From Candidatus Geothermincolia bacterium (GTDB lineage Bacteria; Actinomycetota; Geothermincolia; Fen-727; Anoxymicrobiaceae): DNA of 64,000 nt. Each line of letters opens with the position of its first letter. The stretch's first letter is position 1. Shown one piece after another: positions 1,370 through 59,173 of the stretch. A program made the translations under genes and the position numbers. Location of the stretch: the NCBI GenBank assembly GCA_038326775.1, contig JBBQKJ010000010.1, positions 7,236 to 71,235 of the forward strand. Reading direction: 5' to 3'. Under the pieces are notes generated by a model, which ran no database searches, was not told where the DNA came from, and saw only the letters and a program-made list of their open reading frames with translations.

Positions 1370-1386
1370 ATTCCCCAGTAGTCTCC

Positions 1387-3454: not shown

Positions 3455-5185
3455 TTATTGCCCAATGCGGGATATTGGCATCCGCCAGTCGCGCCCGAAG
3501 GCGCGAGGGGTTATCTTCACGCCCACCGGTGCCTGGCGCCTCTTGAACTCGTTGGCGTCGACCCTGCCTATCACCGATTGAACAAGTTCAGCCGGCGAAC
3601 CGCGCCTGACAATCTCACGCGGGCTCAGCGCCTCCTCGATGTAAGCCTCGAGCACCGGGTCCAGCTCTTCGTACGGCGGGAGGCTGTCGGTATCCAGCTG
3701 CCCCTCGCGAAGCTCAGCGGTCGGGGGCCGCTCTATCACGTGGCGGGGGATCACGTCTCGCCTTTCCCTGGAGTTTATGTACTCCGCGACCTCATATACC
3801 TGCGTCTTGAGCAGATCCTTGATAAGGGCGAAGCCCCCGGCCATATCCCCGTACAGCGTGCAATAGCCCATACTTAGCTCGCTCTTGTTGCCCGTCGCCA
3901 GCACGAGCCAGCCGAACCGGTTGGAGAAAGCCATCAACAGGTTACCCCTGACGCGGGCCTGGATGTTCTCGAACGTCTCACCTTCCTCGGCATTTCCCAC
4001 CTCATCTCTGAGAGTCTCGCGATATGCCGCGTATATGTCACCGATAGGTACGGAGAGGAGCTTCACCTCGAGGTTTCGGGCTAGTTCGCGCGCGGCCTCA
4101 GCGCTCTCACCTGATGTGTACTTCGAGGGCAGGAAAACACAGACTACGTTGTCGCTCCCGAGCGCTCCCACCGCCAGCGCCGCGGTCAGAGCCGAGTCGA
4201 TGCCCCCTGAGAGCCCCAGCACGACCTTGCGAAAACCGTTTTTGGCCACGTACTCCCGCAGGCCCAGCACGATAGCCTCGTATATTTCCTCGACAGGTGA
4301 CAGACCCCGGGGGCTCTCGGGCGCGGTTACCTCAGGCGGGCCGTCTACATTCGCTTCAGGGCGCTCGAGCGCACACACATCGATGACACGTGGGCGCTCT
4401 TTAGAGCCGTACCGGAACCGCGGCTCGAGCATCCTGGCACCCTTGAGTCCGCCCAGACTGATGCCGCAGAGCAGGAGATCCTCACTGAACCTGGGGGCCT
4501 CCGCGATGAACCCGAGCTGCGGGTGGTACACACATGAGCCTCCGTCGAAGACCAGCTCATCCTGAGCCCCGACGGTGTTTACGTAAGCAATGACGACGGG
4601 CCCGTCCATCGAGCGCGCTTCAATGAGCTTTTTGCGAAAGCCGAACTTGCCGCGGTTGAAGGGCGAGGCGGAGAGGTTGAGCACTATCTCGGCGCCGCCG
4701 CCCGCCACCTGCTCCTCCATGGGTCCTCCAGGGTACCAGATGTCCTCGCATATCGTTATGCCTACCCTGACTCCCGCGACGTCAAGGACAACGCTGCCCC
4801 TGCCCACGCCGAAGTACCTCTTTTCGTCGAAGACCCCGTAATTGGGCAGAAGTGCCTTGCGGTAAACGCACTGTATCTTATGGCGATTAATGACCGCCGC
4901 CGAGTTGAAAGTGTCATAGTCGCTCTCCACGAAGCCTACTACCGCGATTATGTCTTCGATTTGCTTCGCGAGCCCTCTCATTGCCGTCATGCTGCCCTCG
5001 GTGAACTCCGGTTTCAGCAGCAGGTCCTCCGGCGGATAGCCTGTGAGGCACAGTTCAGGAAACACGACTATGTCCGCGCCGGCCCTTGCCGCCCGTGCGG
5101 AATACTCGAGGATCTTCCTGGTGTTACTCTCAAGGTCACCAACGGCCGTGTTTACCTGCGCCAAGGCAATCAGAAGCTCGGTCAT
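3455..5185 (-). CDS. nadE: Glutamine-dependent NAD+ synthetase (N-terminal CN-hydrolase/nitrilase domain + NAD synthetase domain)
   Basis: MTELLIALAQVNTAVGDLESNTRKI...IVVFPELCLTGYPPEDL (nitrilase-type glutaminase) ... LGLSGGIDSAL (PP-loop SGGxDS); 576 aa. Confidence 0.9.
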   Translation of the reverse strand: MTELLIALAQVNTAVGDLESNTRKILEYSARAARAGADIVVFPELCLTGYPPEDLLLKPEFTEGSMTAMRGLAKQIEDIIAVVGFVESDYDTFNSAAVINRHKIQCVYRKALLPNYGVFDEKRYFGVGRGSVVLDVAGVRVGITICEDIWYPGGPMEEQVAGGGAEIVLNLSASPFNRGKFGFRKKLIEARSMDGPVVIAYVNTVGAQDELVFDGGSCVYHPQLGFIAEAPRFSEDLLLCGISLGGLKGARMLEPRFRYGSKERPRVIDVCALERPEANVDGPPEVTAPESPRGLSPVEEIYEAIVLGLREYVAKNGFRKVVLGLSGGIDSALTAALAVGALGSDNVVCVFLPSKYTSGESAEAARELARNLEVKLLSVPIGDIYAAYRETLRDEVGNAEEGETFENIQARVRGNLLMAFSNRFGWLVLATGNKSELSMGYCTLYGDMAGGFALIKDLLKTQVYEVAEYINSRERRDVIPRHVIERPPTAELREGQLDTDSLPPYEELDPVLEAYIEEALSPREIVRRGSPAELVQSVIGRVDANEFKRRQAPVGVKITPRAFGRDWRMPISRIGQ

Positions 5186-5218: not shown

Positions 5219-5557
5219 TCAAATCGCCTTCATGCCGTGTTCACCGGTCCTTACCCTGATCGCTTCTTCTACTCTCGTCACGAAGATCTTGCCGTCTCCA
5301 ATACTCCCTGTGCGTGCCTTGCGCAGCACCGCATCGAGAGTCCTGTCAAGGTCCTCGTCCAGGACAACCACCTCTATCTTTACCTTGGGTATGAACGTGA
5401 CGGTGTACTCGTTGCCCCGCCACTGCTGTCTTATCCCCTTCTGTTTGCCGTGTCCGCGCACCTCGCTGACAGTAACACCTGGATAGCCAATCCCGGCAAG
5501 AGCCTCGAGCACCGCCTCCAGTCTGTCGGGTCTGATGATGGCCTCGACCTTGTTCAT
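5219..5557 (-). CDS. glnK: PII nitrogen regulatory protein (GlnK/GlnB family)
   Basis: MNKVEAIIRPDRLEAVLEALAGIGYPGVTVSEVRGHGKQKGI...GDGKIFVTRVEEAIRVRTGE is a classic PII sequence including the T-loop. It lies immediately downstream of amtB. Confidence 0.9.
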   Translation of the reverse strand: MNKVEAIIRPDRLEAVLEALAGIGYPGVTVSEVRGHGKQKGIRQQWRGNEYTVTFIPKVKIEVVVLDEDLDRTLDAVLRKARTGSIGDGKIFVTRVEEAIRVRTGEHGMKAI

Positions 5558-5585: not shown

Positions 5586-7103
5586 TCAGTCAAGCGCCAG
5601 TATCTCCGGTACGTCGTCTGTGTAAGCAGGCACTCCCATCTCGGTAACGTCGAGCCCGGCCAGCTCTTCTTCGGGGGAGACCCTTATCCCCATCACCTTG
5701 TCCTGCACCTTGAAAAAGACGTAGAAAATGGCGCACGCGAAGGCTATACAGGCTGCAGCTCCGATCAGCTGCGCGAAAAGCTGGCTCCAGTTACCGTAAA
5801 GTGCGCCGGTCACCGCGCCCCGCACGCCGTTCAACCCCGCGCCGTAAGTGCCGTCGGCGAATATCCCGAGCGCTATCACCCCCCAGAGCCCATTGACACC
5901 GTGCACCGCCACCGCCCCCACAGGGTCGTCGATCTTAAACCGCCTTTCCAAGGTGCAAACCGCGACACATACCAGCACCCCCGCGATAGCGCCGATGAGG
6001 GCGGCGGACCAACTGGGGACGAAGGCGCAAGGCGCGGTGATAGCGACCAACCCGGCCAGGCAGCCGTTAAGACTCATCGAAGGGTCGGGGTTCCCGGTCT
6101 TCTTCCACATGTAGAGCATGGCCGCCACCGCGCCGAAACACGATGCCAGAAGAGTATTTCCCGCTACTACAGCCAGGCGCAGGTCTTCGGCGTTAAGAGT
6201 ACTCGCGGCGTTAAAACCAAACCACCCGAATACAAGGAACATGCCGCCCACAATCGCCAGCGGTATATTGTGGCCGGGAATCGCCCGCGGCGTTCCGTCC
6301 TTCTTGAACTTCCCGAACCTCGGGCCGAGCACCAGGATTCCCATCAGGCCGGCCAAGCCGCCCATCGCGTGCACCACCGAGGAGCCGGCAAAGTCCACGA
6401 ACCCATTCCCCAGATGCGCCCTGGTCCCCAGCTGCGAAAGCCATCCGCCGCCCCAGACCCAGTTACCGAATATCGGGTAGGCGATCGCTCCCATGAAAAG
6501 GCCGTAGACGACGAACGCCGAGAATTTCCAGCGCTCGGCCAACGCGCCAGTCGGGATGGTTGCGGCGGTGTCCATGAAAACGACCTGGAAGAGGAAAAAG
6601 GCGAATATGCCAACATCGTAGGCCGGGCCGTTCAGGGCAAAGCCCTTCCAACCCAGCAGGCCCCACCCGCCAACAGAGAGCTCGCGAGTTAGAATCGGCT
6701 GCCCACCTAACATCTTGAGTGGCCCGATCCCACCGAACATGAGCGCGTATCCCACCAGATAAAAAGCCACGACCGCGATACCGAATATCATGAAGTTGGT
6801 CATCATGACGTGCAGGGCGTTCTTCTTCTGACAGAAGCCGGTCTCCACAAGCGCGAAGCCCGCCTGCATGAAGAACACCAGCGCCGCTCCAAGGAACAGC
6901 CACACGAAGGTAAGGCTGATCCTGGTGTGGCCGATCTCATCGAGCACCGCGTCGGTCGCCTGCCGCGCGGGCTTTGCGTCCCCTGGATTGTTGATGTCCA
7001 CCCTGGTGCCCGTATTCGCCCCATTCGGGTCTCCCGCTCGCGCCAGCGTCCCAACGCAGAATACCAGCCCCATCACTATGATCGATATAACCGCCGCCCG
7101 CAT
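5586..7103 (-). CDS. amtB: Ammonium transporter Amt family
   Basis: Multi-TM protein with Amt-family motifs (DFAGSSVVHAMGGLAGL..., GHNIPLAIVGGMFLVFGWFGFNA). Start chosen at MRAAVISII (GAAGGA RBS); the ORF could extend to 7178. Confidence 0.88.
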   Translation of the reverse strand: MRAAVISIIVMGLVFCVGTLARAGDPNGANTGTRVDINNPGDAKPARQATDAVLDEIGHTRISLTFVWLFLGAALVFFMQAGFALVETGFCQKKNALHVMMTNFMIFGIAVVAFYLVGYALMFGGIGPLKMLGGQPILTRELSVGGWGLLGWKGFALNGPAYDVGIFAFFLFQVVFMDTAATIPTGALAERWKFSAFVVYGLFMGAIAYPIFGNWVWGGGWLSQLGTRAHLGNGFVDFAGSSVVHAMGGLAGLMGILVLGPRFGKFKKDGTPRAIPGHNIPLAIVGGMFLVFGWFGFNAASTLNAEDLRLAVVAGNTLLASCFGAVAAMLYMWKKTGNPDPSMSLNGCLAGLVAITAPCAFVPSWSAALIGAIAGVLVCVAVCTLERRFKIDDPVGAVAVHGVNGLWGVIALGIFADGTYGAGLNGVRGAVTGALYGNWSQLFAQLIGAAACIAFACAIFYVFFKVQDKVMGIRVSPEEELAGLDVTEMGVPAYTDDVPEILALD

Positions 7104-7202
7104 CAGGCGAATCCTTCTCTCTCTCAGGTTCAGCGGTATCGCGCCTTCCCACATACCCGCCTCCATCGTCAAACTCATGTTTTTCCAGGATACCAGCGGG
7201 AT

Positions 7203-15576: not shown

Positions 15577-15890
15577 GGCAACCCCTCCTTCGCTCGGCTG
15601 AACGTGAAAAAAAGGGCAGCTCAATGCCACCCTTCATATCCATTATGGACAACCATGCCGGCAGCCTCGTTGTCTATCATCACATTGTCAGCGCCGCAAG
15701 GTGAGGAGCGGCATCCTTCGCCCCTGCTTATCAAGTTGATAGGAGTATAGCGAAAGCGCCCCGCAGTGTCCAACTCGCGGCGAGCGAGCAGGTGGTTGCG
15801 TCCCATCCGGAGGCGCCCGGCGTTTCATGATCGGAACCTTCGGGCGTTCAACGGTTATAATAGTGTCAGCTGTTGAAAGGCGGAGAGTTA

Positions 15891-16829: not shown

Positions 16830-16869
16830 GCCGCCCCGCCCTCCGCCGGACCTGAGGCGGATCGGGGCC

Positions 16870-19026
16870 ATGGACTACCGCGGGCTTTTTCGTGGCAAAG
16901 CCAGGCCGGCTCCCCCGCCCGGGGGCACGACCGGGGTCGACATCAGCCAGCAGTTGTTGGTGACAACTCGCCCCGGAGTACAGCTGTTCTGGACAGTTGT
17001 GGTTGGCGCTACGCTCATCTACGCCCTGTCCTCGGGCGGGCCCGGGCACTCCGCGGTCGTAGTGGTGATGCTTGCGTCCTACGCCTCGGTGATAGCAGGG
17101 AACCACTACTTCCCGTACAGGAGGTACAGGCCGTTCGCGTTCTTAGCGCTTATGTGCTCCTGCCTCGTTCTTATCTCGAGCATCGTCTTTCTGACAGGCG
17201 GCCGCGCCAGCCTGCTCGCCTTTCTTTTCTTTCTCGTGCCGGTTTTCGCCGCATCCTATTTCAGCTACCCGGGCACGCTGCTGGTTTCACTTCTGAGTGC
17301 CCTCGCACGCTGCTTCCCGTTCTTCACCGGTCAGTCGAGCGGCATCGTCCTGTTTTCGCTTGCCGTCTCCGCTTTCGCCTTCATTCTTCTCGGCATACTC
17401 GCTTGCTTCGTCTTCGAGGGCGAGAAGATGTACGCCCGCGAGTCGCACGAGTACCGCCATCTCCTGGAGTTGGCCCTCGACAAGGAGAGGGACATCTCGC
17501 TCATCTATAACCTGAGCCGGAAGTTCTCCTACACGCTCGACCTCGATACCGTTCTCAAGACCACGGCCGCCATGGCCCGCAAGATGCTCTCCTCACAGGG
17601 GGCGCTGGTTTTCCTTCTGGAGGATGGAAAACCAACGCTCAGGGCAGCGCTGGGGATACTCCCATTCTCCGATATGTCCGCGGTGCGTCCGCCCTCCGAC
17701 GAAAACTGGGCCAGCCAGCTCGAAGCCGGCAACAACGTTGTGGCCGAGAAAACCTGTCTTGGATGGCTGCCGCTTCCACCCGGCTCGGACCGCTTGCACA
17801 GCCTCTCGGCCGTGCCCCTTTTTACGGGCGCGGACATCGCGGGCTATCTCATGTGCTTCTCTCCGGCCGCCCGCTCTTTCAAAGAGACTCACCTTGATAT
17901 CCTTTCCACGCTGGCCAGCCAGGCGGTCGTTGCTATCGAAAAGGCGCGTCTTTACACTCGCACGCTGGATGAAAAAACAAAGGTGGAAACAATCCTTTCC
18001 GCTCTGCGCGACGGGCTGCTGGTGACCGACTCCCGGGGAGTGCTGGTCCAGACCAACCCGGTCGCCGATCGGCTGCTGGGCATCGGCTCGAGCGCGTTAG
18101 GCTGCGGGCTGCTCGATGTGCTCACTCCTGTTCTGGCCGCGTGCGACCTCGGGCCGTTCACCCCTGGTGAAGCAGTCCTGGCCGTACTGGGCGGACACAC
18201 GATCTTCGGCGAGATGGAGTTCTCCTCCGAGTCGCGCGTCTGTGTCCAGGCCCACTTCATTCCCCTCGAGGACCAGCTCGGCAAGGTCAGTGGAATGGTC
18301 CTCTTCCTCCATGACATCACCGAGTTGAAGCGTATCGACGAGCTGAAGACCAACTTCGTATCGAACGTCTCCCACGAGCTCAGGACACCGCTTACCAGTA
18401 TCGCGGGGTTCGTCAAACTCATGCTGGCGGGAAGGGCGGGCGCCCTTTCGGCGCGGCAGCGCAAATACCTGGATATAGTCAGCTCTCAGGCCTCGGACCT
18501 GACCGGGATGATAGAGAGCATTCTCGACCTCTCCAGGCTGCAGTCCGGCAGCGTCAACCAGGAGATGAGTGAGATCGACCTCTGTCAGCTTGTCAATTCG
18601 GTATTGACAGACCTCTCCCCTACCGCGTCCGAGAAAGATATTGATATCCGGAGCAGGTTGTCCGATACACTTCCTCACGCCAGGGCGAACCCCGTCCGCA
18701 TCTCGCAGGTCCTGACCAACATCATCGATAACGCAGTGAAGTTCACCGAGCCCGGCGGGCTTGTCGAGATATCCGCCCTGCACAACGGACCCCTCCTGCA
18801 GGTGCGGGTAAGCGACTCCGGTGTCGGCATTCCCCCGGGCGCGCTTCCACACATCTTCGACCGCTTCTTCCAGGCGCGCTCCGGAGAGGTCAACGATGCA
18901 GACGGTTTCGGCCTCGGCCTCGCCATCTCCCGGGAGATCGTCGAGATGAGCGGAGGTAAGATCTGGGCCGAGAGCGACCCTGGCCGCGGCAGCACGTTCT
19001 ATTTCACCCTACCGGTGCACAAGTGA
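16870..19026 (+). CDS. Multi-TM sensor histidine kinase with GAF and PAS regions, HisKA and HATPase_c
   Basis: About 6 N-terminal TM helices; GAF-like and PAS-like middle regions; H-box SHELRTPLTSIAGFVKLM; ATPase motifs ...NAVKFTEPGG..., DSGVGIP, GFGLGLAISREIVEMSGGKIWAESDPGRGSTFYFTLP. Confidence 0.85.
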   Translation: MDYRGLFRGKARPAPPPGGTTGVDISQQLLVTTRPGVQLFWTVVVGATLIYALSSGGPGHSAVVVVMLASYASVIAGNHYFPYRRYRPFAFLALMCSCLVLISSIVFLTGGRASLLAFLFFLVPVFAASYFSYPGTLLVSLLSALARCFPFFTGQSSGIVLFSLAVSAFAFILLGILACFVFEGEKMYARESHEYRHLLELALDKERDISLIYNLSRKFSYTLDLDTVLKTTAAMARKMLSSQGALVFLLEDGKPTLRAALGILPFSDMSAVRPPSDENWASQLEAGNNVVAEKTCLGWLPLPPGSDRLHSLSAVPLFTGADIAGYLMCFSPAARSFKETHLDILSTLASQAVVAIEKARLYTRTLDEKTKVETILSALRDGLLVTDSRGVLVQTNPVADRLLGIGSSALGCGLLDVLTPVLAACDLGPFTPGEAVLAVLGGHTIFGEMEFSSESRVCVQAHFIPLEDQLGKVSGMVLFLHDITELKRIDELKTNFVSNVSHELRTPLTSIAGFVKLMLAGRAGALSARQRKYLDIVSSQASDLTGMIESILDLSRLQSGSVNQEMSEIDLCQLVNSVLTDLSPTASEKDIDIRSRLSDTLPHARANPVRISQVLTNIIDNAVKFTEPGGLVEISALHNGPLLQVRVSDSGVGIPPGALPHIFDRFFQARSGEVNDADGFGLGLAISREIVEMSGGKIWAESDPGRGSTFYFTLPVHK

Positions 19027-19029
19027 AAG

Positions 19030-21135
19030 TCAGGGTTTGAGGCGCTCGGCGTGGGTCTCCGCATCTTCCGCCACCTGCATGTGAACGGCGGCTTCGCCCT
19101 CCGAAATAGCATCGAGGAACGCCTTCACGACGGACGGGTCGAACTGCGTGCCGGAGTTCGATTCGATCTCCATCATGGCATCGTGCAAATCCAGGGCCTT
19201 TCGATAAGGACGGTCAGACATCATCGCCTCGAACGAATCGGCCACCGCCAGTATCCTGGCCCCCAGTGGTATCTCCTCCGCCTTCAGACCGTCGGGATAC
19301 CCCTTGCCGTCAAACCGCTCGTGGTGGCGAAGGATTATCTCGCGGGGCTCCGAGAGGAAGTTGACCGGAGCAATGATGGAATCGCCCATCTGGGGATGCG
19401 TCTTCACGTGGAGCGACTCCTCCTCCGAGAGCGCACCAGGTTTGTTGAGAATATGTGCGGCGATGCCCAGCTTTCCGATATCGTGGAGCGCCGCGGCGTA
19501 TTTGATAGTGCGCGTCTCCCACTCCGTGAGTGAAAGCCTGCGCGCGATGACCAGGGCGTACCTGGTCACCCGCTCGGAGTGGCCGTACGTGTACGGGTCC
19601 TTGACCTCAATGGCCCTCGCCAGGGCATTGACCGTGGAAAAGTAACTCATCTCCAGGTCCTCGTAGAGCGACGCGTTCTCCATGGCGACGGCGGCCTGCC
19701 CGGCAATCGCGGTCAACAGGTCCAGGTCTTCATTCGCGACTTCCTCGCATTCCATGCAGTAGAAAAGCACCATGATTCCCAGCAGCCGCTCACGCGAGTT
19801 GAGCGGCACCAGCAAGACGGCCTTGACGCCGGTGTCGTCCAGGCGCTTCGCGGGTATGAACGGAGACAGCGCGGCGTCACTTACTACAGTCTGGCTGTTC
19901 AGAAGCGCCTCGGCGTCCTCTGTCGCGAGGTCCCCCGGCTGCACCCCCTCCGCAAGTGATGTCTCCCACTCGGACTCGGCGAACATACCGAAGGTGGCGG
20001 TCGGGAAAAAGCGCTCCGCGCCCTTCTCGCCGAGGCTGATATATACAGTGCATTTCCCTACCTCGCAAACGTCAGCTGTAATCTGGACCAGCCTGGAGAG
20101 CAGGACGTCTATGTCAAGGGTGGATGTCACCAGCCTCGACACCTCGAGCAGCGCCATTGTCTCCTTGATCTTCTGCTGCTCGCTTCCGTGGAGGCGGGCG
20201 TTCTCCATTGCGGCCGCCACCTTGCTGGCGAACCTTTCCGCCAGGTTGATCGTCTCCGGTGTGAACACCTGGGGGTTCCGTACGTTGTCCAGCATCATCA
20301 CGCCCACGTTCCTGTCCCTCACCATAAGGGGCACCAGCACCATGTGCTTTGTCTTGAGCCTTCTCATTATGGCTGAGGTAAGAGGCATGTTTCGCGGGTA
20401 TCCCTCGACCGTGACCGTCTGCTTCATGTGCACGAGCTGCCTGATCACGGGGCCGTCAAGCCTCACCCCACCGTGGCCGAAGGCTCGCCCGGCATCGAAG
20501 TTGGACGACTCAAGCCGCAGGTCGTTGGTCAACAGGTCTCTGGTGAACAACGCGCAGCGCTCGACGCCGATCAGGTCCTTGCACTTCTTAACAGCGGAGA
20601 GCAGGAGCGTGCTGAAATCGAGCGTCGCCGCGAGGTTGCCGGGGAAGCGGTCGATCTCCTCCTGGTAGGAGTGATAAAACCGCACCACCTCGTCCCTGGT
20701 CTGTGTGAACGACTCCGCCCTTAAAGTCTCCGCCTGCCCCAATATATCGCTCAACAGCACGGCGGCGGCCAGCCCCGCGCCGGCGTCCGCCTCCCCCGCA
20801 CCAGCCATGTCGGCGACAAGCCCGACCAGCGCCCTCTCCACCAGCGTAGGGACGCTCAGGACCTCCTTCATCGAAAACCCGTTCTTGGCGTGCGAATAGC
20901 TCTCGAACGTCTCGCTTCCAAGGAAGTCCGTGGTGTCTTCAGTCTCGACCGCTTCCTTGAGAAGGTCGAAATATCCGAAGAAGAAATTCTTGCGGGTCTG
21001 CTTTAGAAACGCGTAATAGGGAGTCCGCGGAGACTCTCTAACGGGTATCCGCCCGATAATGTCGTCTCGCCTGCTCGTGAGCAGGTCAAGCGCCAACCTC
21101 TTGCCTTCACCGGAATTCGACGGCAGCCTGGCCAT
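19030..21135 (-). CDS. GAF-GAF-HD-GYP domain protein (putative c-di-GMP phosphodiesterase)
   Basis: C-terminal HD-GYP: AAALHDIGKLGIAAHILNKPGALSEEESLHVKTHPQMGDSII...ILRHHERFDGKGYPDGL. Upstream GAF-like repeats. Start chosen at MARLPSN (GGGGACGA RBS). Confidence 0.8.
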   Translation of the reverse strand: MARLPSNSGEGKRLALDLLTSRRDDIIGRIPVRESPRTPYYAFLKQTRKNFFFGYFDLLKEAVETEDTTDFLGSETFESYSHAKNGFSMKEVLSVPTLVERALVGLVADMAGAGEADAGAGLAAAVLLSDILGQAETLRAESFTQTRDEVVRFYHSYQEEIDRFPGNLAATLDFSTLLLSAVKKCKDLIGVERCALFTRDLLTNDLRLESSNFDAGRAFGHGGVRLDGPVIRQLVHMKQTVTVEGYPRNMPLTSAIMRRLKTKHMVLVPLMVRDRNVGVMMLDNVRNPQVFTPETINLAERFASKVAAAMENARLHGSEQQKIKETMALLEVSRLVTSTLDIDVLLSRLVQITADVCEVGKCTVYISLGEKGAERFFPTATFGMFAESEWETSLAEGVQPGDLATEDAEALLNSQTVVSDAALSPFIPAKRLDDTGVKAVLLVPLNSRERLLGIMVLFYCMECEEVANEDLDLLTAIAGQAAVAMENASLYEDLEMSYFSTVNALARAIEVKDPYTYGHSERVTRYALVIARRLSLTEWETRTIKYAAALHDIGKLGIAAHILNKPGALSEEESLHVKTHPQMGDSIIAPVNFLSEPREIILRHHERFDGKGYPDGLKAEEIPLGARILAVADSFEAMMSDRPYRKALDLHDAMMEIESNSGTQFDPSVVKAFLDAISEGEAAVHMQVAEDAETHAERLKP

Positions 21136-21252
21136 TCGTCCCCTCACTCTTTCTGGTGCCAACAAACGCGTCTCGCCGGCCCGCCTCGCGGGCACATCAT
21201 TTCAAGCCTTCGCGGAGGCGAATCAACCTGTGACGGTTCAGATAATCTTCCG

Positions 21253-24844: not shown

Positions 24845-24972
24845 ACTGCCAGATATCTTCTCCCATCCGGACTGTAACCGTCGGCCCCGGAATCTCACCG
24901 GGTCTGCTCCGAAGAGCTCGCGGGCTATACCGCCGGTAGGGGCTTCCACCCTGTCCCGAAGACCTTATGTTT
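24845..24972 (-). promoter_or_regulatory. FMN riboswitch (RFN element) aptamer in the leader of ribD-ribE-ribBA-ribH
   Basis: Minus-strand RNA GGUCUUCGGGACAGGGUGGAAGCCCCUACCGGCGGUAUAGCCCGCGAGC...CCGGUGAGAUUCCGGGGCCGACGGUUACAGUCCGGAUGGGAGAAGAU matches the conserved FMN-aptamer core segments almost base for base. About 75 nt of expression platform follow before the ribD ATG. Confidence 0.85.
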
Positions 24973-27327: not shown

Positions 27328-28101
27328 TCAATAGCAGTACATGTTGCCGTAAGGCCTGTGCGAAAACGGCATCAGCTTGGCGAATTCGTCTATAGATACC
27401 GGGGAGATGTCGGCCCCGGTCTCGGCCGCGAACTCGGCGAGAAGGCTCTCCAGCTGACAGCGGTCTTCTTCCTCAAGCGGAAACACCCTGACCTCTTCCC
27501 CGAGCTGTCGTTCCGATACCTGACCACGAAGAAAGATGACACCGCCGTGCATGCCGGTTCCCACGTAGTTTCCGACGAGAGGGCCTTCCTCCGCATTCAG
27601 GCCCAGCAGCACCATGACACCGCCGGCCATGTATTCACCGAAGAAGTCGCCGGCGCGGCCGCCCGCCACGATCACCGGCACCTGGTCCTTGAAGGACTTC
27701 ATGTGGATACCGACCCGGTAACCGACGTTGCCGAGGACGAATATCCTGCCACCGCGCATCCCGTAGCCCATGACATCGCCCACATGGCCTTTCACCACTA
27801 TCTTGCCGCTGTTCATGGTGTTGCCGACCCCGTCCTGCGCATTTTCGTTCACGAACAGCGTGGGGCCGTCCATGAAAGCCCCAAGATCGTTTCCTGGGAC
27901 GCCGTTGACGATGATCCGCACCTTGTCCGTCAGGCCGTCGCCTATGTAGCGCTGACCGTTAACGCCGTCGAGCGTTATCTCCCGGCAGCCCTCCGCAATA
28001 AGGCCGCGTACCCGGCAGTTCAGGTCTTTGTAGTGGACGCCTGTCGCGTCGACGGTCATGCTCTTCGACCCCGTCTTGTCGCTGGTGGCCGCCTTCCCCA
28101 T
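27328..28101 (-). CDS. Glutamate synthase C-terminal (GXGXG) domain protein (archaeal-type split GOGAT)
   Basis: ...IVNGVPGNDLGAFMDGPTLFVNENAQDGVGNTMNSGKIVVKGHVGDVMGYGMRGGRIFVLGNVGYRVGIHM... shows repeated GxxGxxG beta-helix turns. Start chosen at MGKAATS to avoid a 145-nt overlap. Confidence 0.8.
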   Translation of the reverse strand: MGKAATSDKTGSKSMTVDATGVHYKDLNCRVRGLIAEGCREITLDGVNGQRYIGDGLTDKVRIIVNGVPGNDLGAFMDGPTLFVNENAQDGVGNTMNSGKIVVKGHVGDVMGYGMRGGRIFVLGNVGYRVGIHMKSFKDQVPVIVAGGRAGDFFGEYMAGGVMVLLGLNAEEGPLVGNYVGTGMHGGVIFLRGQVSERQLGEEVRVFPLEEEDRCQLESLLAEFAAETGADISPVSIDEFAKLMPFSHRPYGNMYCY

Positions 28102-28115
28102 GTCTTCCCTCGCTC

Positions 28116-29618
28116 TCACCTTCCGGCTGCTTTCACGTCGAGTATCTCGGTTGTCATCTCGTCGAGGCCAAGGGCGCGCAGCCTCTCCCTGTTTCCCCGA
28201 AGCGATTCGACCGCGTTGACGCCCAGCGCCCCCAGTATCTCCTTCAGCTCGAGCGACCACGCGTTTATGAGGTTCACCAACCGCTCGGCCCCCCAGTCGG
28301 GGTCAAGCCTTCCGGTGAGCTCCGGCCGCTGGGTGGCCAGGCCCCAGGAGCAGTTCCCGGTATAGCACTTCTGGCAGAGCCTGCACCCCAGCGCGATGAG
28401 CGCGGCCGTGCCTACGCCCACGGCGTCCGCCCCCAGCGCTATCGCCTTTGCCACGTCGGCGCTGGACCGTATTCCCCCCGCCGCGATGATCGAGACCCAG
28501 TTCCTTATGCCTTCACTGCGAAGCTGCTGATCGACGACGGCAAGCGCTATCTCGACGGGGATGCCCACGTGATCGCGTATGACCGCCGGGGCCGCCCCCG
28601 TTCCGCCGCGGAACCCGTCCAGGTAGATGATATCGGCCCCCGCTCTCGCGATTCCGCTGGCGATGGCCGCTACGTTGTGTACGGCCGCTATCTTGACCGA
28701 CACCGGCTTGTAGCCGGTCGCCTCTTTGATCGCGTAGATCAACTGCCGCAGGTCCTCTATGGAATAGATGTCGTGGTGTGGGGCGGGCGAAAGCGCGTCG
28801 GTGCCGATCGGTATCATGCGCGTACTCGAAACTTCTCTTCCTATCTTCTCCCCCGGCAGGTGGCCGCCGATGCCGGGCTTGGCGCCCTGGCCCACCTTGA
28901 TCTCGACCGCCACGCCTCGGTTGAGGTACTCGGAGTGGACCCCGAACCTGCCAGACGCGCACTGGACTATTACATTGTCGGCGTAAGGATACAACTCCTC
29001 GTGAAGCCCGCCCTCACCGGTGTTCATTACCGTCCCCAGCCGTTCCGCCGCGATTGCCAGCGCCTTGTGGACGTTGAGGCTGACCGACCCGTAAGACATC
29101 CCGCTGAATATTATCGGAATGTCCAGCTTTATATTGTTGCTTATCTTCGTGTCCAGCTTGTAACCGCCGTTTGAGGGCTCCAAGACCAGACGGTCTGGCT
29201 TGCGGCCAAGGTATGTGCGCAGCTCCATAGGTTCGCGCAGCGGGTCGATTGAAGGGTTTGTGACCTGGCAGGCGTCTATCAGCAGGTGGTCGAACACGTT
29301 CAGCCAGGGCTGGTCGTTGCCCATGCCGGTCAGTATCATGCCGGAGCTCTCCGCCTGCTTCCATATTGCCTTGCGACGGTCGACATCCCAGGAGGCGTGC
29401 TCGCGGAACGCCAGCGGGTTTCGGGCGATGGATATCGCCTCCTCCGGGCAGAACACCACGCACCTGTGGCAGGCGACGCACTTTGAGGCATCCGACGTGA
29501 CCCTGTCCTTGAAGTCGAAGACCCCGAACCCGCAGTTGAGCGTGCAGCGTTTGCACTTACGGCATCGCTCGTGGTCCACGACCACCTGGAACTCGTTCGT
29601 AACCATGTTGCCCGGCAT
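28116..29618 (-). CDS. Glutamate synthase FMN/Fe-S central domain with N-terminal 2x[4Fe-4S] ferredoxin domain
   Basis: N-terminus CRKCKRCTLNCGFG...CVACHRCVVFCP; the core has GOGAT central-domain motifs (...GEGGLHEE..., ...GQGAKPGIGGHLPGEKI..., ...LDGFRGGTGAAP...). Confidence 0.85.
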   Translation of the reverse strand: MPGNMVTNEFQVVVDHERCRKCKRCTLNCGFGVFDFKDRVTSDASKCVACHRCVVFCPEEAISIARNPLAFREHASWDVDRRKAIWKQAESSGMILTGMGNDQPWLNVFDHLLIDACQVTNPSIDPLREPMELRTYLGRKPDRLVLEPSNGGYKLDTKISNNIKLDIPIIFSGMSYGSVSLNVHKALAIAAERLGTVMNTGEGGLHEELYPYADNVIVQCASGRFGVHSEYLNRGVAVEIKVGQGAKPGIGGHLPGEKIGREVSSTRMIPIGTDALSPAPHHDIYSIEDLRQLIYAIKEATGYKPVSVKIAAVHNVAAIASGIARAGADIIYLDGFRGGTGAAPAVIRDHVGIPVEIALAVVDQQLRSEGIRNWVSIIAAGGIRSSADVAKAIALGADAVGVGTAALIALGCRLCQKCYTGNCSWGLATQRPELTGRLDPDWGAERLVNLINAWSLELKEILGALGVNAVESLRGNRERLRALGLDEMTTEILDVKAAGR

Positions 29619-30739
29619 CAGAGGTCACCCTTCAGTTCCCCGATGACCGGCTGGCCCGCGCTCGGGGCCCATACACGGTCCGGCCGTGGACATATTTGCC
29701 TAATGGCCGACTCCTCGCTCGAGATATAGAGGAAGTCATCCTTACCGGCCGCGACAAGCGGCCGCAGCTTTATCCTGTCGTTCAAACCGACTATGCCGCG
29801 GGAGTATCCCACGATCACCGCGAACGGCCCGTTCACGAGCGCGCTGCCGTAGGCCACGCGCAGAGCCTCCTCGAGCTCACGCTCGATCGGGTCGGACTCG
29901 TTATCTATGTCTTTCCAGAAAGGCGCCGCCAGAACTTTGCAGGCGACCTCGAGAGGCAACCTGTGCTTACGGACAAGGAGGTCAAACAGGTACGCCATCA
30001 CCTCTGTGTCTGTCAGCAGCGTGCACTCGTAGCCGAACATCTCCAGGTAGCGCTTGTTGATGCCGTAGGAGGATATCTCGCCGTTGTGCACGACAGCCCA
30101 GTCGAGGATATTAAACGGGTGGGCGCCTCCCCACCAACCGGGTGTATTCGTGGGAAATCTTCCGTGGCCTATCCAGCTGTAACCCGAGTAATCGGGCAGG
30201 CGGTAGAACTCGCCTACGTCCTCCGCGAACCCGACCGCCTTGAATACCCCCATGTTCTTGCCACTTGAGAAGACGAAGGTCCCCGGCACAGTCGTATTGA
30301 TGCCCATGACCAGCCTTACCATGAAGTCATCTGGCTCGATTGCCTCAGCAAGGAGCTTCTCTCCCCTCGGCAGTGCGAAGTAACGGCGCAGTTCGGGAAC
30401 GTCCTGTATCTGGGGGCTCGGAAGTGTAGGTATCTCCTCGGCGGCCTCGACCTCGAGGTTCATCTCGAGCATCTCCTCGCATGCGGCCCTGCCGTCAGCG
30501 TCCTCGAACATTATATGGAGCGCGTAGTGGTCATTGTATCTCGGGTATATCCCGTACCCCGCGAAGCCTCCGCCCAACCCGTTGCCCCGGTCGTGCAAGA
30601 CCTTCATTGACTCGATGATGACGTCTCCGCCTATCATCTTGCCGTCCTGGCTTATCACGCCGGAGAGCCCACAGGCCGCCGGGACACGGCTCTCGTCCAC
30701 TCGCCACTTCGAATACTTATCACCGAACGCCAATGTCAA
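29618..30739 (-). CDS. Glutamate synthase class-II (Ntn) glutamine amidotransferase domain protein
   Basis: ...ACGLSGVISQDG...HDRGNGLGGGFAGYGIY...HGRFPTNTPGWWGGAHPF... The putative nucleophile Cys lies at residue 23 of the annotated ORF, suggesting a propeptide or an alternative start. ATGA start/stop overlaps on both sides. Confidence 0.8.
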   Translation of the reverse strand: MTLAFGDKYSKWRVDESRVPAACGLSGVISQDGKMIGGDVIIESMKVLHDRGNGLGGGFAGYGIYPRYNDHYALHIMFEDADGRAACEEMLEMNLEVEAAEEIPTLPSPQIQDVPELRRYFALPRGEKLLAEAIEPDDFMVRLVMGINTTVPGTFVFSSGKNMGVFKAVGFAEDVGEFYRLPDYSGYSWIGHGRFPTNTPGWWGGAHPFNILDWAVVHNGEISSYGINKRYLEMFGYECTLLTDTEVMAYLFDLLVRKHRLPLEVACKVLAAPFWKDIDNESDPIERELEEALRVAYGSALVNGPFAVIVGYSRGIVGLNDRIKLRPLVAAGKDDFLYISSEESAIRQICPRPDRVWAPSAGQPVIGELKGDL

Positions 30740-32073
30740 CCATCCTTCCCTTCGAAAGTGTCCTTTAAGAGCCTGGCGAGCTCCGCGGTGCCGGGTTCAG
30801 CGACGGGCCCCAGACCCAGCCTGGCACGGGCTCTTTCCCTTGCCTTTCCCAGCACGCCCGTTTTATGGAACATCTCTATGCCCTGCAGCGTCTCGGCCGG
30901 ACCGATACCCCGATCGAGCGCCATGCGCTTGGCCTCCTTGAAGACCTTCATCATACCGAAGTTGTTCGGGCACATATCGGTGCAGGTGCCGCATTCCAGG
31001 CATTTCCATATATCGTCCCCGACGATGACCTCTTCAGCTTCTCCCGCCAGGATACGGGACAGGACACCGTGGGGTTGATACGTGTCATCGACCTGCGCTA
31101 CCGGACAATCGTTGGAGCATGATTCGCAGTCTACGCATGTGAGCATTGCCTGGTAGTCGAATTCTTCCGGTACGGCCCGGCGAATCCGCCGCAGCTCATC
31201 CCAGCGGTCAACAAACGGCTCGACCGGGACCCTGTGCATATCCAGGCCTAACTCCGCCGGGGAGAAGCCGAGCGCGAGCCCGGCAAGCTCCGTGTAATAC
31301 AAGACCGGGATGCTCATACCCTCCATCTGCTTCTGGATAACCATCTGCTGCGTCTCGAACTGCCCGAAGCACGCCGGGCAGGTAACGATCAATGCGTCCG
31401 CTTGCTCCCGCTCGAGCTCGAGCAGTTTGAGCCTGGCGCTTTCCATCGACTCCTCCGGGTTGCCCGCGCGCCCTAGAGCTTCGCCGCAGCACATGAGCTT
31501 GGACTCGTAATCTATACTGGTGGCTCCAAGGCACTCTACAAGGTGGTCGAGCTTCACTGGGTGCAGGGAGTCGTCCATACGTACTGTGGGCGACGGCCTC
31601 AAGACCTGGCAACCAACATGGACGCCCACCCTCATGCCATCGAGCCGGCGCTCCACCTTCCTGGCGATGACATCCGGCCCAACCTTGTCATGGAGCACCT
31701 CGACAATGTGATACACGGAAGTGCGGAAATTGTAGGAGAGGCCGATTTCCTCGAGGCGCCCCGATACTTGCTTCCGTAGCGCGCTCGAGGCGCTGAAGGC
31801 GCTTATCGCACTCCGGAAACTCGCGTAGCAACCGTTGCAGGCGACCAGCAGGTCGCCCCCGTTCTTCTCGGCTAGCGCAAGGTTGCGCGCGGCGGTAAGG
31901 TACCACGCCTCCTCCGAGAGCGTCTCAACGAGGAACTTCTCCGGGCAGCAAGTGAACCCCTCGACCTCTTGGTACCTGACGCCAAGCTCATCGAGCACCA
32001 GGCGCAGGGACTTCTCGAGGAAAGGAAACCTGCCAGGTATTGTGCAACCCCAGAAGAAAATGTACTCGCTCAC
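30736..32073 (-). CDS. Heterodisulfide-reductase-like Fe-S oxidoreductase: two CCG (HdrB-type) domains followed by HdrC-type 2x[4Fe-4S] ferredoxin domain
   Basis: CCG domain 1: WGC-x31-CCPEK-x35-CNGC. CCG domain 2: ...GCQV...MCCGE...CPAC. C-terminus: CVDCESCSNDCP and CLECGTCTDMCP. Confidence 0.75.
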   Translation of the reverse strand: MSEYIFFWGCTIPGRFPFLEKSLRLVLDELGVRYQEVEGFTCCPEKFLVETLSEEAWYLTAARNLALAEKNGGDLLVACNGCYASFRSAISAFSASSALRKQVSGRLEEIGLSYNFRTSVYHIVEVLHDKVGPDVIARKVERRLDGMRVGVHVGCQVLRPSPTVRMDDSLHPVKLDHLVECLGATSIDYESKLMCCGEALGRAGNPEESMESARLKLLELEREQADALIVTCPACFGQFETQQMVIQKQMEGMSIPVLYYTELAGLALGFSPAELGLDMHRVPVEPFVDRWDELRRIRRAVPEEFDYQAMLTCVDCESCSNDCPVAQVDDTYQPHGVLSRILAGEAEEVIVGDDIWKCLECGTCTDMCPNNFGMMKVFKEAKRMALDRGIGPAETLQGIEMFHKTGVLGKARERARARLGLGPVAEPGTAELARLLKDTFEGKDG

Positions 32074-32259
32074 TTGAATAGACGCTTCCTAACCTGTGTT
32101 TTCTTTCAATATCCTGCGAATTCTAGCACCCATAATACATACGTTCAATGACGGCCGCCAACGCCATCTTTGACCCCTTCATCGTGGTCACAGTCAAACG
32201 CAAAGCGCCCCACCGTGCACCAGGTGAGGCGAATTGCGGTCGCGGAAAGTCTCAATCTC

Positions 32260-33597
32260 TCATAATATCGACAGGTGGCATTCGAGCTCGTACTCGGTCA
32301 CTTGCGCCCTGTACTCCTCCCACTCGATCTTCTTGTCGATGATAAGGTTTTCGAACACGTGGTCGCCAAGGCACTCTCTCAACAGCTCGCTTTTCTCGGC
32401 AAGGCGTATGGCCTCCCAGAGGTCCTCCGGCAGCGACTCGATGCCAAGCTCCCTGCGCTCCCGCTCTCCCATCTCGTATATGTTGCGCTCGACGGGCTCA
32501 CCGGGGTCAATGTTTTCCTCCATGCCCTTGAGGCCCGCCGCTAGCATCGCGGCGAACGCCAGGTACGGGTTGGCGGCCGGGTCGGGCGAGCGGAACTCCA
32601 CCCTGGTGGACTTCTCCTTTCCCGGCTTGTACACGGGAACCCTGATCATGTCCGAGCGGTTGCGCCGCGCCCAGGACAGGTAGACGGGAGCCTCGTACCC
32701 GGGAACGAGCCTCTTATAGGAGTTAACCCACTGGTTTGTGACCAGGCACATTTCCGGGGCGTACTTCATGAGGCCGCCGATGAAGCTCTTGGCCTCCCTG
32801 GTCAGGAAATACTTGTCGTTCGCGTCGAAGAACGCGTTGGCGTCACCCTTGAACAGCGACATGTGCGTGTGCATCCCGCTGCCGTTCTCACCAAAAAGAG
32901 GCTTGGGCATGAAGGTCGCGTACACCCCGTGCTTCATTGCCACCTCCTTGATGACAAGACGGTAGGTCATTGCGTTGTCGGCCATCTGCAGGGCGTCGGT
33001 GTAGCGCAGGTCTATCTCGTGCTGGCTTGGGCCCACCTCGTGGTGGCTGTACTCGACCCCTATGCCCATCTCCTCGAGTGTTAGCACCATATCGCGGCGC
33101 AGGTCGCTTGCAACGTCCAGGGGGGTAAGATCAAAGTAGCCGCCGTGGTCTATCACCTCCGGAGGGTACTTATCGTTCGCGAAAACGTAGAACTCGAGTT
33201 CCGGCCCCACATAGAAGGTGTAGCCCAGATCCTGAGCCTTCATGAGGTTCCTCTTGAGCACGTAGCGCGGGTCGCCGGCATGCGGGCTGCGGTCTGGCTC
33301 GACTATGTCGCAGAACATGCGCGCCACGGCGCTATGGCCGCTGGGCCGCCAGGGCAGCAGGGCGAATGTTGAAGGGTCCGGCTGCGCGATCATATCGCTC
33401 TCGTCGATCCGGGCGAAACCCTGGATCGAGGACCCGTCGAACCCCATTCCGCTGTCCATGGCCTCCTCCAACTCCTCCCTGGTAATGGCGAAGCTCTTTA
33501 GGAAACCCAGGATATCGGTGAACCAGAGCCTTATGAACTTGACGTCGTGCTCCCTGACGGCCTCGAGTACGTACGCTTTGTCCGGGGTGTCAGTCAT
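32260..33597 (-). CDS. glnA: Glutamine synthetase type I
   Basis: ...KFIRLWFTDILGFLKSF...FDGSSIQGF... GS-I catalytic motifs (...NGSGMHTHMSLF...); about 445 aa. Confidence 0.92.
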   Translation of the reverse strand: MTDTPDKAYVLEAVREHDVKFIRLWFTDILGFLKSFAITREELEEAMDSGMGFDGSSIQGFARIDESDMIAQPDPSTFALLPWRPSGHSAVARMFCDIVEPDRSPHAGDPRYVLKRNLMKAQDLGYTFYVGPELEFYVFANDKYPPEVIDHGGYFDLTPLDVASDLRRDMVLTLEEMGIGVEYSHHEVGPSQHEIDLRYTDALQMADNAMTYRLVIKEVAMKHGVYATFMPKPLFGENGSGMHTHMSLFKGDANAFFDANDKYFLTREAKSFIGGLMKYAPEMCLVTNQWVNSYKRLVPGYEAPVYLSWARRNRSDMIRVPVYKPGKEKSTRVEFRSPDPAANPYLAFAAMLAAGLKGMEENIDPGEPVERNIYEMGERERRELGIESLPEDLWEAIRLAEKSELLRECLGDHVFENLIIDKKIEWEEYRAQVTEYELECHLSIL

Positions 33598-33653
33598 GAG
33601 CCCTCCCTTTGATCTGATGGCGTTCATTACGCATTTGATTGTAGGGCAGGGTT

Positions 33654-33691
33654 GTTTCGGAAATGTTTCCGACCGGTGAAATTGTTGTTAA
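33654..33691 (-). promoter_or_regulatory. 11-bp-phased box array TTAAC-n6-TTCAC-n6-GAAAC-n6-GAAAC (minus-strand reading) upstream of glnA; a -10-like TACAAT lies about 15 nt downstream
   Basis: Plus strand has GTTTC at 33654 and 33665, GTGAA at 33676 and GTTAA at 33687, exactly 11 nt apart. The same motif family appears upstream of amtB (7203-7229). Confidence 0.35.
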
Positions 33692-33717
33692 TAAAGCGAC
33701 GTCGCTATCGGGCTTCC

Positions 33718-34383
33718 TCAGGCGGAAACGAAACGGTAACCGACGCCGTGTACCGTCTCAATGTAACTCCGCTTACCCTCGATCTTGGCCCTCAGCCGGC
33801 GGACGTGGACGTCAACCGTTCTGGTCCCGCCGAAGTAGTCGTAGCCCCAGATGCCTCTGAGCAGCTCCTCCCTGGTGAACGCCTTCCCTGGTGAGCCCGC
33901 CAGCTTTCTCAGAAGCTCGAACTCTTTGAACGTGAGGTCTACCGGCTTTATGTCCAGGAAGACCTGGTGCGCTTCCAGGTTTATTACGAGCTCGCCGAAC
34001 ACCACGGCTTCGCCCTCTCCGCCGCGCCGGAGCGCGACCACTTTTACCCTGGAGACAAGCTCCCCGGCGCCACCCGGCGCCACCATGAAATCATCGACGA
34101 CCCTGAGGGTATCGGTGTCCTCCAGCCTGTCCATGCTTCCCATGGTTGTGATTAGCGGCACCCGGGACATCCATCCGCCGGCGCGGTTCATCGACGCCCT
34201 GGTTTCCCTGGCAAGGCGGGTGGGTGGGTTAGCGAGGACTACTGCGGAAAGGGGCTCGAGGTCCGGGCTCTCCAACTCGGAGGGGCTCTCGAGAAGTACT
34301 GCGGCAATATCCAGCAATTCCAACCCATCCAGCAGGCTGCCAGCATATTCCGACCCGTCACTGTGGAAAGCGTAAGCCGCCAT
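33718..34383 (-). CDS. OmpR/PhoB-family transcription regulator with degenerate receiver domain (GlnR-like orphan regulator)
   Basis: C-terminal winged helix ...FGELVINLEAHQVFLDIKPVDLTFKEFELLRKLAGSPGKAFTREELLRGIWGYDYFGGTRTVDVHVRRLRAKIE...GYRF. The N-terminal REC-like fold lacks the acidic pocket, and the phospho-Asp position reads ...AVVLANPP. Confidence 0.6.
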   Translation of the reverse strand: MAAYAFHSDGSEYAGSLLDGLELLDIAAVLLESPSELESPDLEPLSAVVLANPPTRLARETRASMNRAGGWMSRVPLITTMGSMDRLEDTDTLRVVDDFMVAPGGAGELVSRVKVVALRRGGEGEAVVFGELVINLEAHQVFLDIKPVDLTFKEFELLRKLAGSPGKAFTREELLRGIWGYDYFGGTRTVDVHVRRLRAKIEGKRSYIETVHGVGYRFVSA

Positions 34384-34392: not shown

Positions 34393-35148
34393 TCACCCAC
34401 CAGAGTCCTGTTCCGCTGAGGCCACTCCTGGCACTCCGAATATCGGCACGGAAGCCCGCTTGTGCTCGCTTGCGGAGACCAGGCCCTTGACCCGGGCCAC
34501 TTCATCAGGCATTTCTACAGGGGTACGGCCCTGCTCCAGTGCCTTCAATATCGAGTCCATCTCCTGGTAGGTCATGCCCAATTCGCCCTCGTCGGTCTGT
34601 CCCTCCCACAGGCCCGCGCTTGGTGGCTTCGCAAGTATCGGCCCGGGCACCCCCAGGCTCGCGGCTATCTCGTAGAGGTCGGTCTTGTAGATATCGGCAA
34701 GAGGGCAGATGTCAGCGGCGCCATCCCCGTGCTTTGTGAAGTAACCCACGCTCCGCTCGCTCTTGTTGGAGGTGCCGACAATCATCATCCCGCGATCGTT
34801 TGCCAGGTAGTAAAGGGTTATCATGCGGAGTCTCGGCTTGATGTTCGAGATAGCCGCCTCGCCTCCGGGCGGCAGCACGGCCAGCAGGCTCTCGAGCACG
34901 GTTGAAAGGTCGATAGTCAGTGTTTTTATCTCGAACGCTTCGGCGGCAAGCAAGGCATCGTCCATATCGCGCCTACGGCTCATGCACGGCATTATCACCC
35001 CTAGCGCGCGGTCGCCAAGGGCTCTCTCGCACAGTGCTCCCACTACTGCGGAGTCCAGGCCGCCGGAAAGCCCGAAAACGGCTCCCTTTGCGCCTGCCGC
35101 TTTGGCCTGCTCTCTTATCCACAAGGTCAACTCTTCAATGATTCTCAT
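34393..35148 (-). CDS. nadE: NH3-dependent NAD+ synthetase (short form)
   Basis: ...GAVFGLSGGLDSAVVGAL... (PP-loop) ...MIVGTSNKSERSVGYFTKHGDGAADICPLADIYKTDLYEIA...; 251 aa, no nitrilase domain. Confidence 0.85.
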   Translation of the reverse strand: MRIIEELTLWIREQAKAAGAKGAVFGLSGGLDSAVVGALCERALGDRALGVIMPCMSRRRDMDDALLAAEAFEIKTLTIDLSTVLESLLAVLPPGGEAAISNIKPRLRMITLYYLANDRGMMIVGTSNKSERSVGYFTKHGDGAADICPLADIYKTDLYEIAASLGVPGPILAKPPSAGLWEGQTDEGELGMTYQEMDSILKALEQGRTPVEMPDEVARVKGLVSASEHKRASVPIFGVPGVASAEQDSGG

Positions 35149-35227
35149 GACGCTCCACGCTTTAAGCCCAATAACTGCCTATTGAAGATAATACTTCAGG
35201 TATGCGCTGCCGGAAACCCGGGAGGCC

Positions 35228-56065: not shown

Positions 56066-56155
56066 AAATTGGGGTCAGATCTGATTTCATCAGCCGGTCT
56101 TACTCGAGCCGTGTGACGGCCAACGACTGATGAAATCAGATCTGACCCCAATTTT
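56065..56155. repeat. Perfect 29-bp AT-rich inverted repeat (arms 56065-56093 and 56127-56155) with 33-nt spacer; candidate bidirectional terminator between the Rieske gene and the glycyl-radical enzyme gene
   Basis: AAAATTGGGGTCAGATCTGATTTCATCAG ... CTGATGAAATCAGATCTGACCCCAATTTT. Both strands end in CCCCAAUUUU(U). The two arms touch the stop codons of the two convergent genes exactly. Confidence 0.55.
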
Positions 56156-59121: not shown

Positions 59122-59173
59122 CACCCCTCACTCTCATGGCTACGGTTTACTGCCGGCATCGCGACGCTTCAGT

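Follow-up and report, generated by a model that had tools for sequence, protein, structure and literature searches.

A probable Asp-less GlnR-lineage regulator and phased box arrays at the glnA and amtB promoters of a Candidatus Geothermincolia bacterium

The window analysed here is a 64,000-nucleotide stretch of contig JBBQKJ010000010.1 (assembly GCA_038326775.1, positions 7,236 to 71,235), from a Candidatus Geothermincolia bacterium of the phylum Actinomycetota. It encodes a 221-aa OmpR/PhoB-type regulator next to the glutamine synthetase gene glnA and, about 26 kb away, an amtB-glnK-NAD synthetase operon on the minus strand. Both glnA and amtB are preceded by an array of four boxes in 11-bp phase. 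The regulator is likely a divergent, Asp-less protein of the GlnR lineage, four protomers of which would switch on glnA and amtB-glnK-nadE at promoters with a −10 element only. The sequences themselves, their conservation, the specificity of the arrays for the two promoters, the fold of the regulator and its proximity to the GlnR family were all established directly. The system would extend a known one rather than constitute a new kind, its novelty being a natural Asp-to-Asn/Ser variant in which boxes and targets are kept. In the collection of papers searched, none names both GlnR and Geothermincolia.

The glnA array (TTAAC-aacaat-TTCAC-cggtcg-GAAAC-atttcc-GAAAC; 33691-33654, minus strand) was read directly from the leader and consists of the four 11-nt-spaced boxes that the initial annotation had placed at 33654-33691. 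The same annotation had described three phased boxes in the amtB leader at 7229-7203; these are present, but the count was too low, since GTTAC at 7240-7236 is a further box in the same phase. The amtB array, also read directly, is thus GTTAC-ctgcat-TTAAC-aaaccc-GAAAC-gggcac-GAAAC (7240-7203, minus strand). Each box has 5 nt with the consensus K-W-N-A-C, and positions 4-5 are AC or AT in the boxes read here, with TTTAT in the related locus L007 as an outlier. Shuffled sequence would give 0.04 occurrences of the pair GAAAC-n6-GAAAC, whereas the window has two. A predicted −10 hexamer lies 10 nt 3′ of the last box in each case (TACAAT at 33638..33643 for glnA and TATCCT at 7187..7192 for amtB, both on the minus strand). 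No recognisable −35 consensus was found in either promoter, where the third box occupies that position, and an Rfam search of the two leaders returned no riboswitch or other RNA family. A GAAAC-n6-GTAAC pair on the opposite strand (33725-33740, plus strand) lies in the 3′-terminal part of the regulator gene, where it corresponds to the codons of GYRFVS; most likely it arises from the protein-coding sequence alone.

The glnA-leader footprint was drawn from eight distinct loci, comprising the window and seven others, whose regulators are 50-100% identical (50-70% for the seven others). All eight leaders follow the pattern TT(A/T)AC-n6-TT(C/T)A(C/T)-n6-GAAAC-n6-GAAAC-n10-TAnnnT, so that the TAnnnT position is conserved in 8/8. 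Information per column is highest in the boxes (1.90 bits), followed by the −10 hexamer (1.51 bits), the spacers (1.08 bits) and the flanks (0.25-0.42 bits). Five amtB-type leaders were found in four loci of relatives, all with the layout array-n10-TAnnnT directly 5′ of amtB; the hexamers of the amtB leaders read TATCCT, TACCTT, TAACCT and TATCCT, with identical spacing. One of these loci, L093, has a second, divergent amtB-PII operon (5747-7524, minus strand) with an array of its own, TTTAC-n6-TTAAC-n6-GAAAC-n6-GAAAT-n10-TACAAA.

A position weight matrix (PWM) was trained solely on the glnA leaders of the relatives, with no window sequence in the training set, and applied with a reporting threshold of 10 bits. 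It scored the window glnA leader at 28.3 bits and the amtB leader at 27.7 bits, and the only other matches in the 64-kb window to reach 10 bits were the same two arrays read in a shifted frame. At a period of 11, the 267 kb of clade DNA yielded 14 arrays scoring 20 bits or more, all in sense orientation 5′ of glnA or amtB, against none at periods 8-10 or 12-14. The controls were 461 kb from 80 metagenome loci recovered in an AmtB scan at 45-60% identity, evidently from other lineages; none had an array, no score reached 20 bits and the best was 17.5 bits. The question of motif frequency raised by the initial annotation can therefore be answered: the arrays are not scattered, being confined to glnA and amtB promoters in the window and the clade DNA and absent from the controls. 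Two-box pairs of at least 13 bits numbered 39 at period 11, mostly inside arrays, and 6-17 at periods 9, 10, 12 and 13; outside arrays, two-box half-sites were no commoner than at other spacings. No recurrent half-site or array was found 5′ of gdhA (in relatives), the glutamate synthase genes or the NH3-type nadE.

A small regulon comprising glnA, amtB-glnK-nadE and possibly the NH3-dependent nadE upstream of the regulator had been predicted. The arrays support the first two members. The NH3-type nadE lacks an array, none reaching even the 10-bit reporting threshold in the PWM scan, and has a promoter with a GTAT(T/C)ATC −10-like element instead. Since arrays occur only at glnA and the amtB operons, the regulon is small on present data.

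The regulator gene (33718..34383, minus strand) is an open reading frame with a single Pfam match, to Trans_reg_C (E 1.6e-26). Neither Response_reg nor GlnR_1st (PF21695) matched the protein even at E values up to 10; its canonical GlnR neighbours score 1e-13 to 5e-35 against GlnR_1st. An AlphaFold (AF2) model built from 89 sequences has a mean predicted local distance difference test score of 90.4; its N-terminal part adopts a (beta-alpha)5 receiver fold and the rest a winged helix. Together with Pfam, the model delimits an Asp-less receiver-fold N-domain at residues ~1-120 and a winged-helix DNA-binding domain at residues ~125-219. By sequence, the best solved relatives are the GlnR structures 8hig, 8hih and 8hml of Saccharopolyspora erythraea and Mycobacterium tuberculosis (E 1e-30 to 1e-26), which are those described in PMC10235972, and the next PDB match is RegX3 (E 4e-22). 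The DNA-binding domain alone scored 94-97 bits against GlnR, 73-79 against VicR/YycF/WalR, 64 against RegX3 and 61 against MtrA. Foldseek with the AF2 model returned full-length OmpR/PhoB regulators, of which M. tuberculosis GlnR had the highest identity (34%), and placed the DNA-binding domain of the model 1.4 Å from that of 8hig at 52% identity. The canonical OmpR winged helix claimed initially is therefore upheld by Trans_reg_C, by the predicted fold and by the match to the GlnR DNA-binding domain.

Some 87 close relatives at 45-89% identity were found in a database of 5.8 billion proteins, none with a GlnR_1st match on record, while the next neighbours beyond this clade (P0088-P0120) all carry GlnR_1st. 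That the nearest proteins outside the clade carry this domain, and that the best PDB relatives are GlnR, agrees with the GlnR-like character proposed at the outset, as does the orphan state: the neighbouring genes are rsmB, nadE and glnA, and no histidine kinase adjoins the regulator in the eight loci. The nearest canonical GlnR, P0088 (JGI 3300041965), has both GlnR_1st and the Asp and is encoded directly 5′ of a glutamine synthetase gene; the adjacency of regulator and glnA is therefore older than the loss of the Asp. Identity as MtrA was considered and rejected: the MtrA model (NCBIfam NF040689) gave 103 bits over residues 73-217 only, against an equivalog cut-off of 300, and this sub-threshold match is uninformative because genuine GlnR proteins score the same and NCBIfam has no GlnR model.

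Residues 47-54 of the regulator read AVVLANPP, with N52 at the phospho-acceptor position. This column holds Asp in 29/29 canonical GlnR proteins, and Asn in 48/60, Ser in 10/60 and Asp in 2/60 members of the clade, where a nearly invariant Pro follows this position. The beta4 Thr is replaced by Ala (Ala at both 79 and 80), and the beta5 Lys is missing, with Ser, Ala or Tyr at position 102, although its partner P103 is kept. D9 is kept in 58/60 clade members. The receiver had been described as lacking both the acceptor and the acidic pocket; the former is indeed missing, but the retention of D9 indicates that the pocket is degenerate and not wholly absent. An acceptor Asp, a beta4 Thr/Ser, a beta5 Lys and a Response_reg match, as expected of a phosphorylation-dependent OmpR/PhoB response regulator, are all lacking, and the activity of the protein cannot depend on Asp phosphorylation.

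D97, E108 and R112, in beta5 and alpha5, are invariant in the clade and in canonical GlnR. In OmpR/PhoB receivers this pattern fits an alpha4-beta5-alpha5 dimer surface, which would be retained here. Canonical GlnR lacks a set of polar residues that is near-invariant in the clade (D9, S11, E/D12, Y/F13, N52-P53, R59, R62 and G69-G70-x-x-S73-R74). The Asp-less receiver might itself be a sensor that binds a metabolite (2-oxoglutarate or glutamine) or a partner (GlnK or the glutamine synthetase of the adjacent gene), an idea that we regard as tentative and on balance unlikely. If true, it would provide a direct input for a GlnR-type regulator, a class whose signal was never identified.

The base-reading residues of S. 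erythraea GlnR are R186, V190, R193 and R194, and its phosphate contacts have also been listed (PMC10235972). The window protein has the same residue as GlnR at each of the four base-reading positions, none of which varies within the clade, and 10/12 phosphate contacts are identical, the exceptions lying in the wing (R211 to His and N212 to Gly in S. erythraea numbering). To judge from these residues, the regulator would be able to read pentamers of the GTnAC/GAAAC type, though it is not proven to be their sole reader.

In the proposed mechanism, the regulator would probably be made constitutively, together with the NH3-type nadE, from the box-less promoter. Each of four protomers would occupy one 5-nt box, in head-to-tail order and 11 bp apart. 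The boxes span approximately −60 to −23 if the conserved hexamers are −10 elements, the third box taking the −35 position and the fourth falling between it and the hexamer. The activation complex of M. tuberculosis GlnR has four head-to-tail protomers, each on a site of its own, along a scaffold from −64 to +13, and its last site lies 3′ of the −35 element; given this assignment of the hexamers, the geometry would therefore be the same as in the solved GlnR complex. Bound protomers would recruit RNA polymerase to the −10-only promoters, as in that complex, and glnA and amtB-glnK-nadE (the glutamine-dependent nadE) would be switched on, presumably under nitrogen scarcity. Binding itself, activation rather than repression, and nitrogen limitation as the trigger are what we infer in this scheme.

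Several observations weigh against assigning the arrays to an Asp-less GlnR-lineage activator, and some of them would fit a different reader. The arrays could be bound by another OmpR/PhoB regulator (MtrA-like, PhoP-like or canonical GlnR), leaving the Asp-less protein with other targets or a modulating role. The second glnA box, in its context TTTCACC, resembles a PhoP-type repeat. The base readers of the recognition helix are common to the WalR, VicR and YycF group, and their identity was dropped as proof of GlnR specificity, VicR and YycF having them too. MtrA is moreover reported to bind GlnR boxes, according to an entry in the reference list of PMC10704036. With the base readers present in VicR/YycF/WalR and GlnR boxes bound by MtrA, the DNA-binding domain alone therefore does not tie the boxes to the regulator. 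Such a reader is nevertheless improbable: the regulator gene adjoins glnA alongside the arrays in 8/8 loci, no protein group in the database is closer to GlnR than the regulator clade, and no other OmpR-type DNA-binding domain was found in the window or the clade loci. The N-domain offers a further point on the negative side. A profile-profile comparison of the clade N-domain with canonical GlnR N-domains gave 96% probability, but against the PDB the N-domain profile ranks PrrA (E 6e-8) above the GlnR receiver 4o1h (E 5e-4); at the sequence level the N-domain would thus be a divergent OmpR/PhoB receiver, not specifically a GlnR one. Canonical GlnR boxes follow the consensus gTnAc-n6-GaAAc, alternate as a-b-a-b and require an A at position 4 (PMC10704036). 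This architecture, to which the arrays had been matched, is followed in the gTnAc/GaAAc-type 5-mers, the n6 spacers and the A at position 4, but not in the order of the boxes, which here is a-a-b-b. Finally, canonical GlnR has an unphosphorylated Asp, Asp50 in Amycolatopsis mediterranei and D48 in Mycobacterium smegmatis, that stabilises the homodimer and is needed for function (PMC10704036), and it is this Asp that the regulator lacks.

Two further explanations accept less of the scheme. The regulator could bind the arrays as a repressor, occluding approximately −60 to −23 under nitrogen sufficiency; the boxes lie over the −35 position and reach into the spacer, and GlnR is known to repress some of its targets, for example ald and gdhA (PMC4140684). 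We hold this to be distinctly unlikely, as both promoters lack a −35 consensus in the manner of activator-dependent promoters, the last site of the M. tuberculosis GlnR activation complex likewise lies 3′ of the −35 element, and glnA and amtB are activated GlnR targets in actinomycetes. Short, AT-rich, intergenic boxes might also be phased by chance or composition and have no regulatory role. The probability of this is negligible, and a chance origin of the arrays is excluded: eight glnA and five amtB leaders are conserved while their flanks are not, the 11-bp period is strict, the distance to the −10 hexamer is fixed at 10 nt, and the controls gave no match. The regulator most likely works like GlnR, from which the comparison of sequences sets it apart in two defining features, the conserved Asp and the GlnR_1st match.

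Actinobacterial GlnR (Streptomyces coelicolor SCO4159 and M. tuberculosis Rv0818; PDB 8hih, 8hig, 8hml and 4o1h) is the nearest known system. Both regulators are orphans with identical base readers, boxes of the gTnAc/GaAAc type at 11-bp phase with four sites overlapping the −35 region, and glnA and amtB-glnK as known or, here, predicted targets, and neither uses Asp phosphorylation. Unlike GlnR, the window protein has Asn/Ser for Asp, no GlnR_1st match and His/Gly at wing positions R211/N212, its box order is a-a-b-b, and nadE is the operon partner 3′ of glnK. OmpR/PhoB regulators with Asp-less or pseudo-receiver domains are well known, such as ChxR, HP1043, RitR and the ALR domains (PMC4395418, PMC12632262, PMC3960148). 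ChxR, HP1043 and RitR likewise keep the receiver fold, have lost the acceptor Asp and do not need phosphorylation for activity; the Foldseek matches to the regulator include RitR (5u8m) and HP1043 (2hqr). They show no specific kinship to it, however, and control other regulons, whereas its nearest family is GlnR. MtrA and WalR/VicR/YycF have a closely similar recognition helix (RTVDV-x-V-RRLR) and bind 11-bp-phased direct repeats, but are kinase-paired and Asp-phosphorylated. In Bacillus-type GlnR/TnrA of the MerR family (glnRA operon), the regulator gene is also directly 5′ of glnA and serves nitrogen control. That fold is unrelated, binds inverted repeats and senses feedback-inhibited glutamine synthetase, and Pfam found no MerR domain in the window regulator.

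If correct, the assignment would bring GlnR-type control and the four-protomer promoter layout to an uncultured, deep-branching lineage of the Actinomycetota, a reach that suggests that the circuit is old within the phylum. The replacement of Asp by Asn/Ser with boxes and targets kept amounts to a natural experiment, which lets one ask what the Asp is needed for. The arrays are unusually regular and few, which would make binding and structural experiments on them simple. Motif and regulon could also be transferred to metagenome-assembled genomes of the lineage, which at present list the protein under a generic response-regulator label only.

The regulator lies within the minus-strand order rsmB, nadE (NH3-type), regulator, glnA. 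The glnA gene (32260..33597, minus strand; TIGR00653, 530 bits) encodes a type I glutamine synthetase of 445 aa. Its longest open reading frame begins further upstream, but the start is most likely ATG 33597, which has a GGGAGGG ribosome-binding site ahead of it and agrees with the 445 aa called for glnA on identical contigs. The NH3-type NAD synthetase gene nadE (34393..35148, minus strand; 251 aa; Pfam and NCBIfam matches) has its stop 9 nt before the regulator start, which makes co-transcription probable, and the two genes probably share one transcript. Upstream of this pair, a −10-like TATTAT (35188..35193, minus strand) at a conserved position within GTATTATC has no box array. The wider element GTAT(T/C)ATC (35188-35195, minus strand) is present in 8/8 loci, as TTATTATC in L007; it looks like a −10 hexamer whose neighbouring bases are conserved too, and the sequence around the element is unconserved. 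In L007, a two-box site GTAAC-n6-GAAAC (9918-9933, plus strand) lies approximately 27 nt 5′ of the regulator's −10-like element. It is a single occurrence, and could be a site of autoregulation of the regulator gene.

In six of the eight distinct loci the genes run metK-def-fmt-rsmB-nadE-regulator-glnA, with a split glutamate synthase cluster next. The order in L007 and L008 differs only in the absence of nadE, and the nadE-regulator pair is thus found in 6/8 loci. In the window, a terminator-like hairpin follows directly after the glnA stop codon (32206..32231, minus strand), and promoter-like sites lie after it at 32161-32120, ahead of the glutamate synthase cluster (27328-32073, minus strand). 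The cluster is archaeal-style, with a CCG/4Fe-4S protein, GATase_2, a Glu_synthase flavin mononucleotide (FMN) domain and GXGXG, and is kept in all related loci; the hairpin and its own promoter-like sites divide it from glnA, and no box array was found in the window cluster.

The amtB gene encodes an ammonium transporter of 522 aa (5586..7154, minus strand), whose homologues carry PF00909 and have 518-523 aa. The longest open reading frame begins further upstream; the probable start is ATG 7154, ahead of which stands a GGAGG ribosome-binding site. It is followed by open reading frames for glnK (PII; 112 aa; 5219..5557, minus strand) and, as the third operon gene, a glutamine-dependent NAD synthetase of 576 aa with CN_hydrolase and NAD_synthase domains (3455..5185, minus strand). 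A tRNA-Ala gene (7330-7404) lies just 5′ of amtB. Four amtB-glnK-nadE loci of the same lineage (L090-L093) encode AmtB proteins 73-80% identical to that of the window, and each has a 112-aa P-II gene after amtB and the same NAD synthetase gene after glnK. Among the organisms recorded as sources of close AmtB relatives are Candidatus Geothermincolia and Candidatus Solincola. The two NAD synthetases of the window have opposite linkage, the NH3-dependent enzyme standing behind the box-less promoter and the glutamine-dependent one in the box-bearing amtB-glnK operon, an arrangement that suggests a nitrogen-donor switch for NAD synthesis when ammonium is scarce.

A GAF-ANTAR protein is encoded a few genes 3′ of amtB-glnK-nadE and DUF2804 (662-1516, minus strand). 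Equivalents occur in three relatives (L091 13499-14206, L092 14463-15188 and L093 15403-16113), where a gene for a NuoF-like/Fe-S protein comes next; L091 has a glutamate-synthase-type gene there as well. The GAF-ANTAR protein may provide a second, RNA-level layer of nitrogen control.

Elsewhere in the window, a signalling cluster (15873-21195) encodes a GAF-PAS histidine kinase together with a REC-GGDEF protein, while the gene for a GAF-GAF-HD (HD_5) protein lies on the other strand. The kinase is the only one in the window; it lies approximately 15 kb from the regulator and is paired with the REC-GGDEF protein. An FMN riboswitch (24851-24967, minus strand; Rfam RF00050, 112 bits) stands ahead of ribD-ribBA, and the longest ribD open reading frame overlaps it, so that the true ribD start must lie further downstream. 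Two tandem glycyl-radical enzymes of approximately 990 aa each, with PFL-like and Gly_radical domains, are encoded at 56155-59124 and 59174-62146 on the minus strand.

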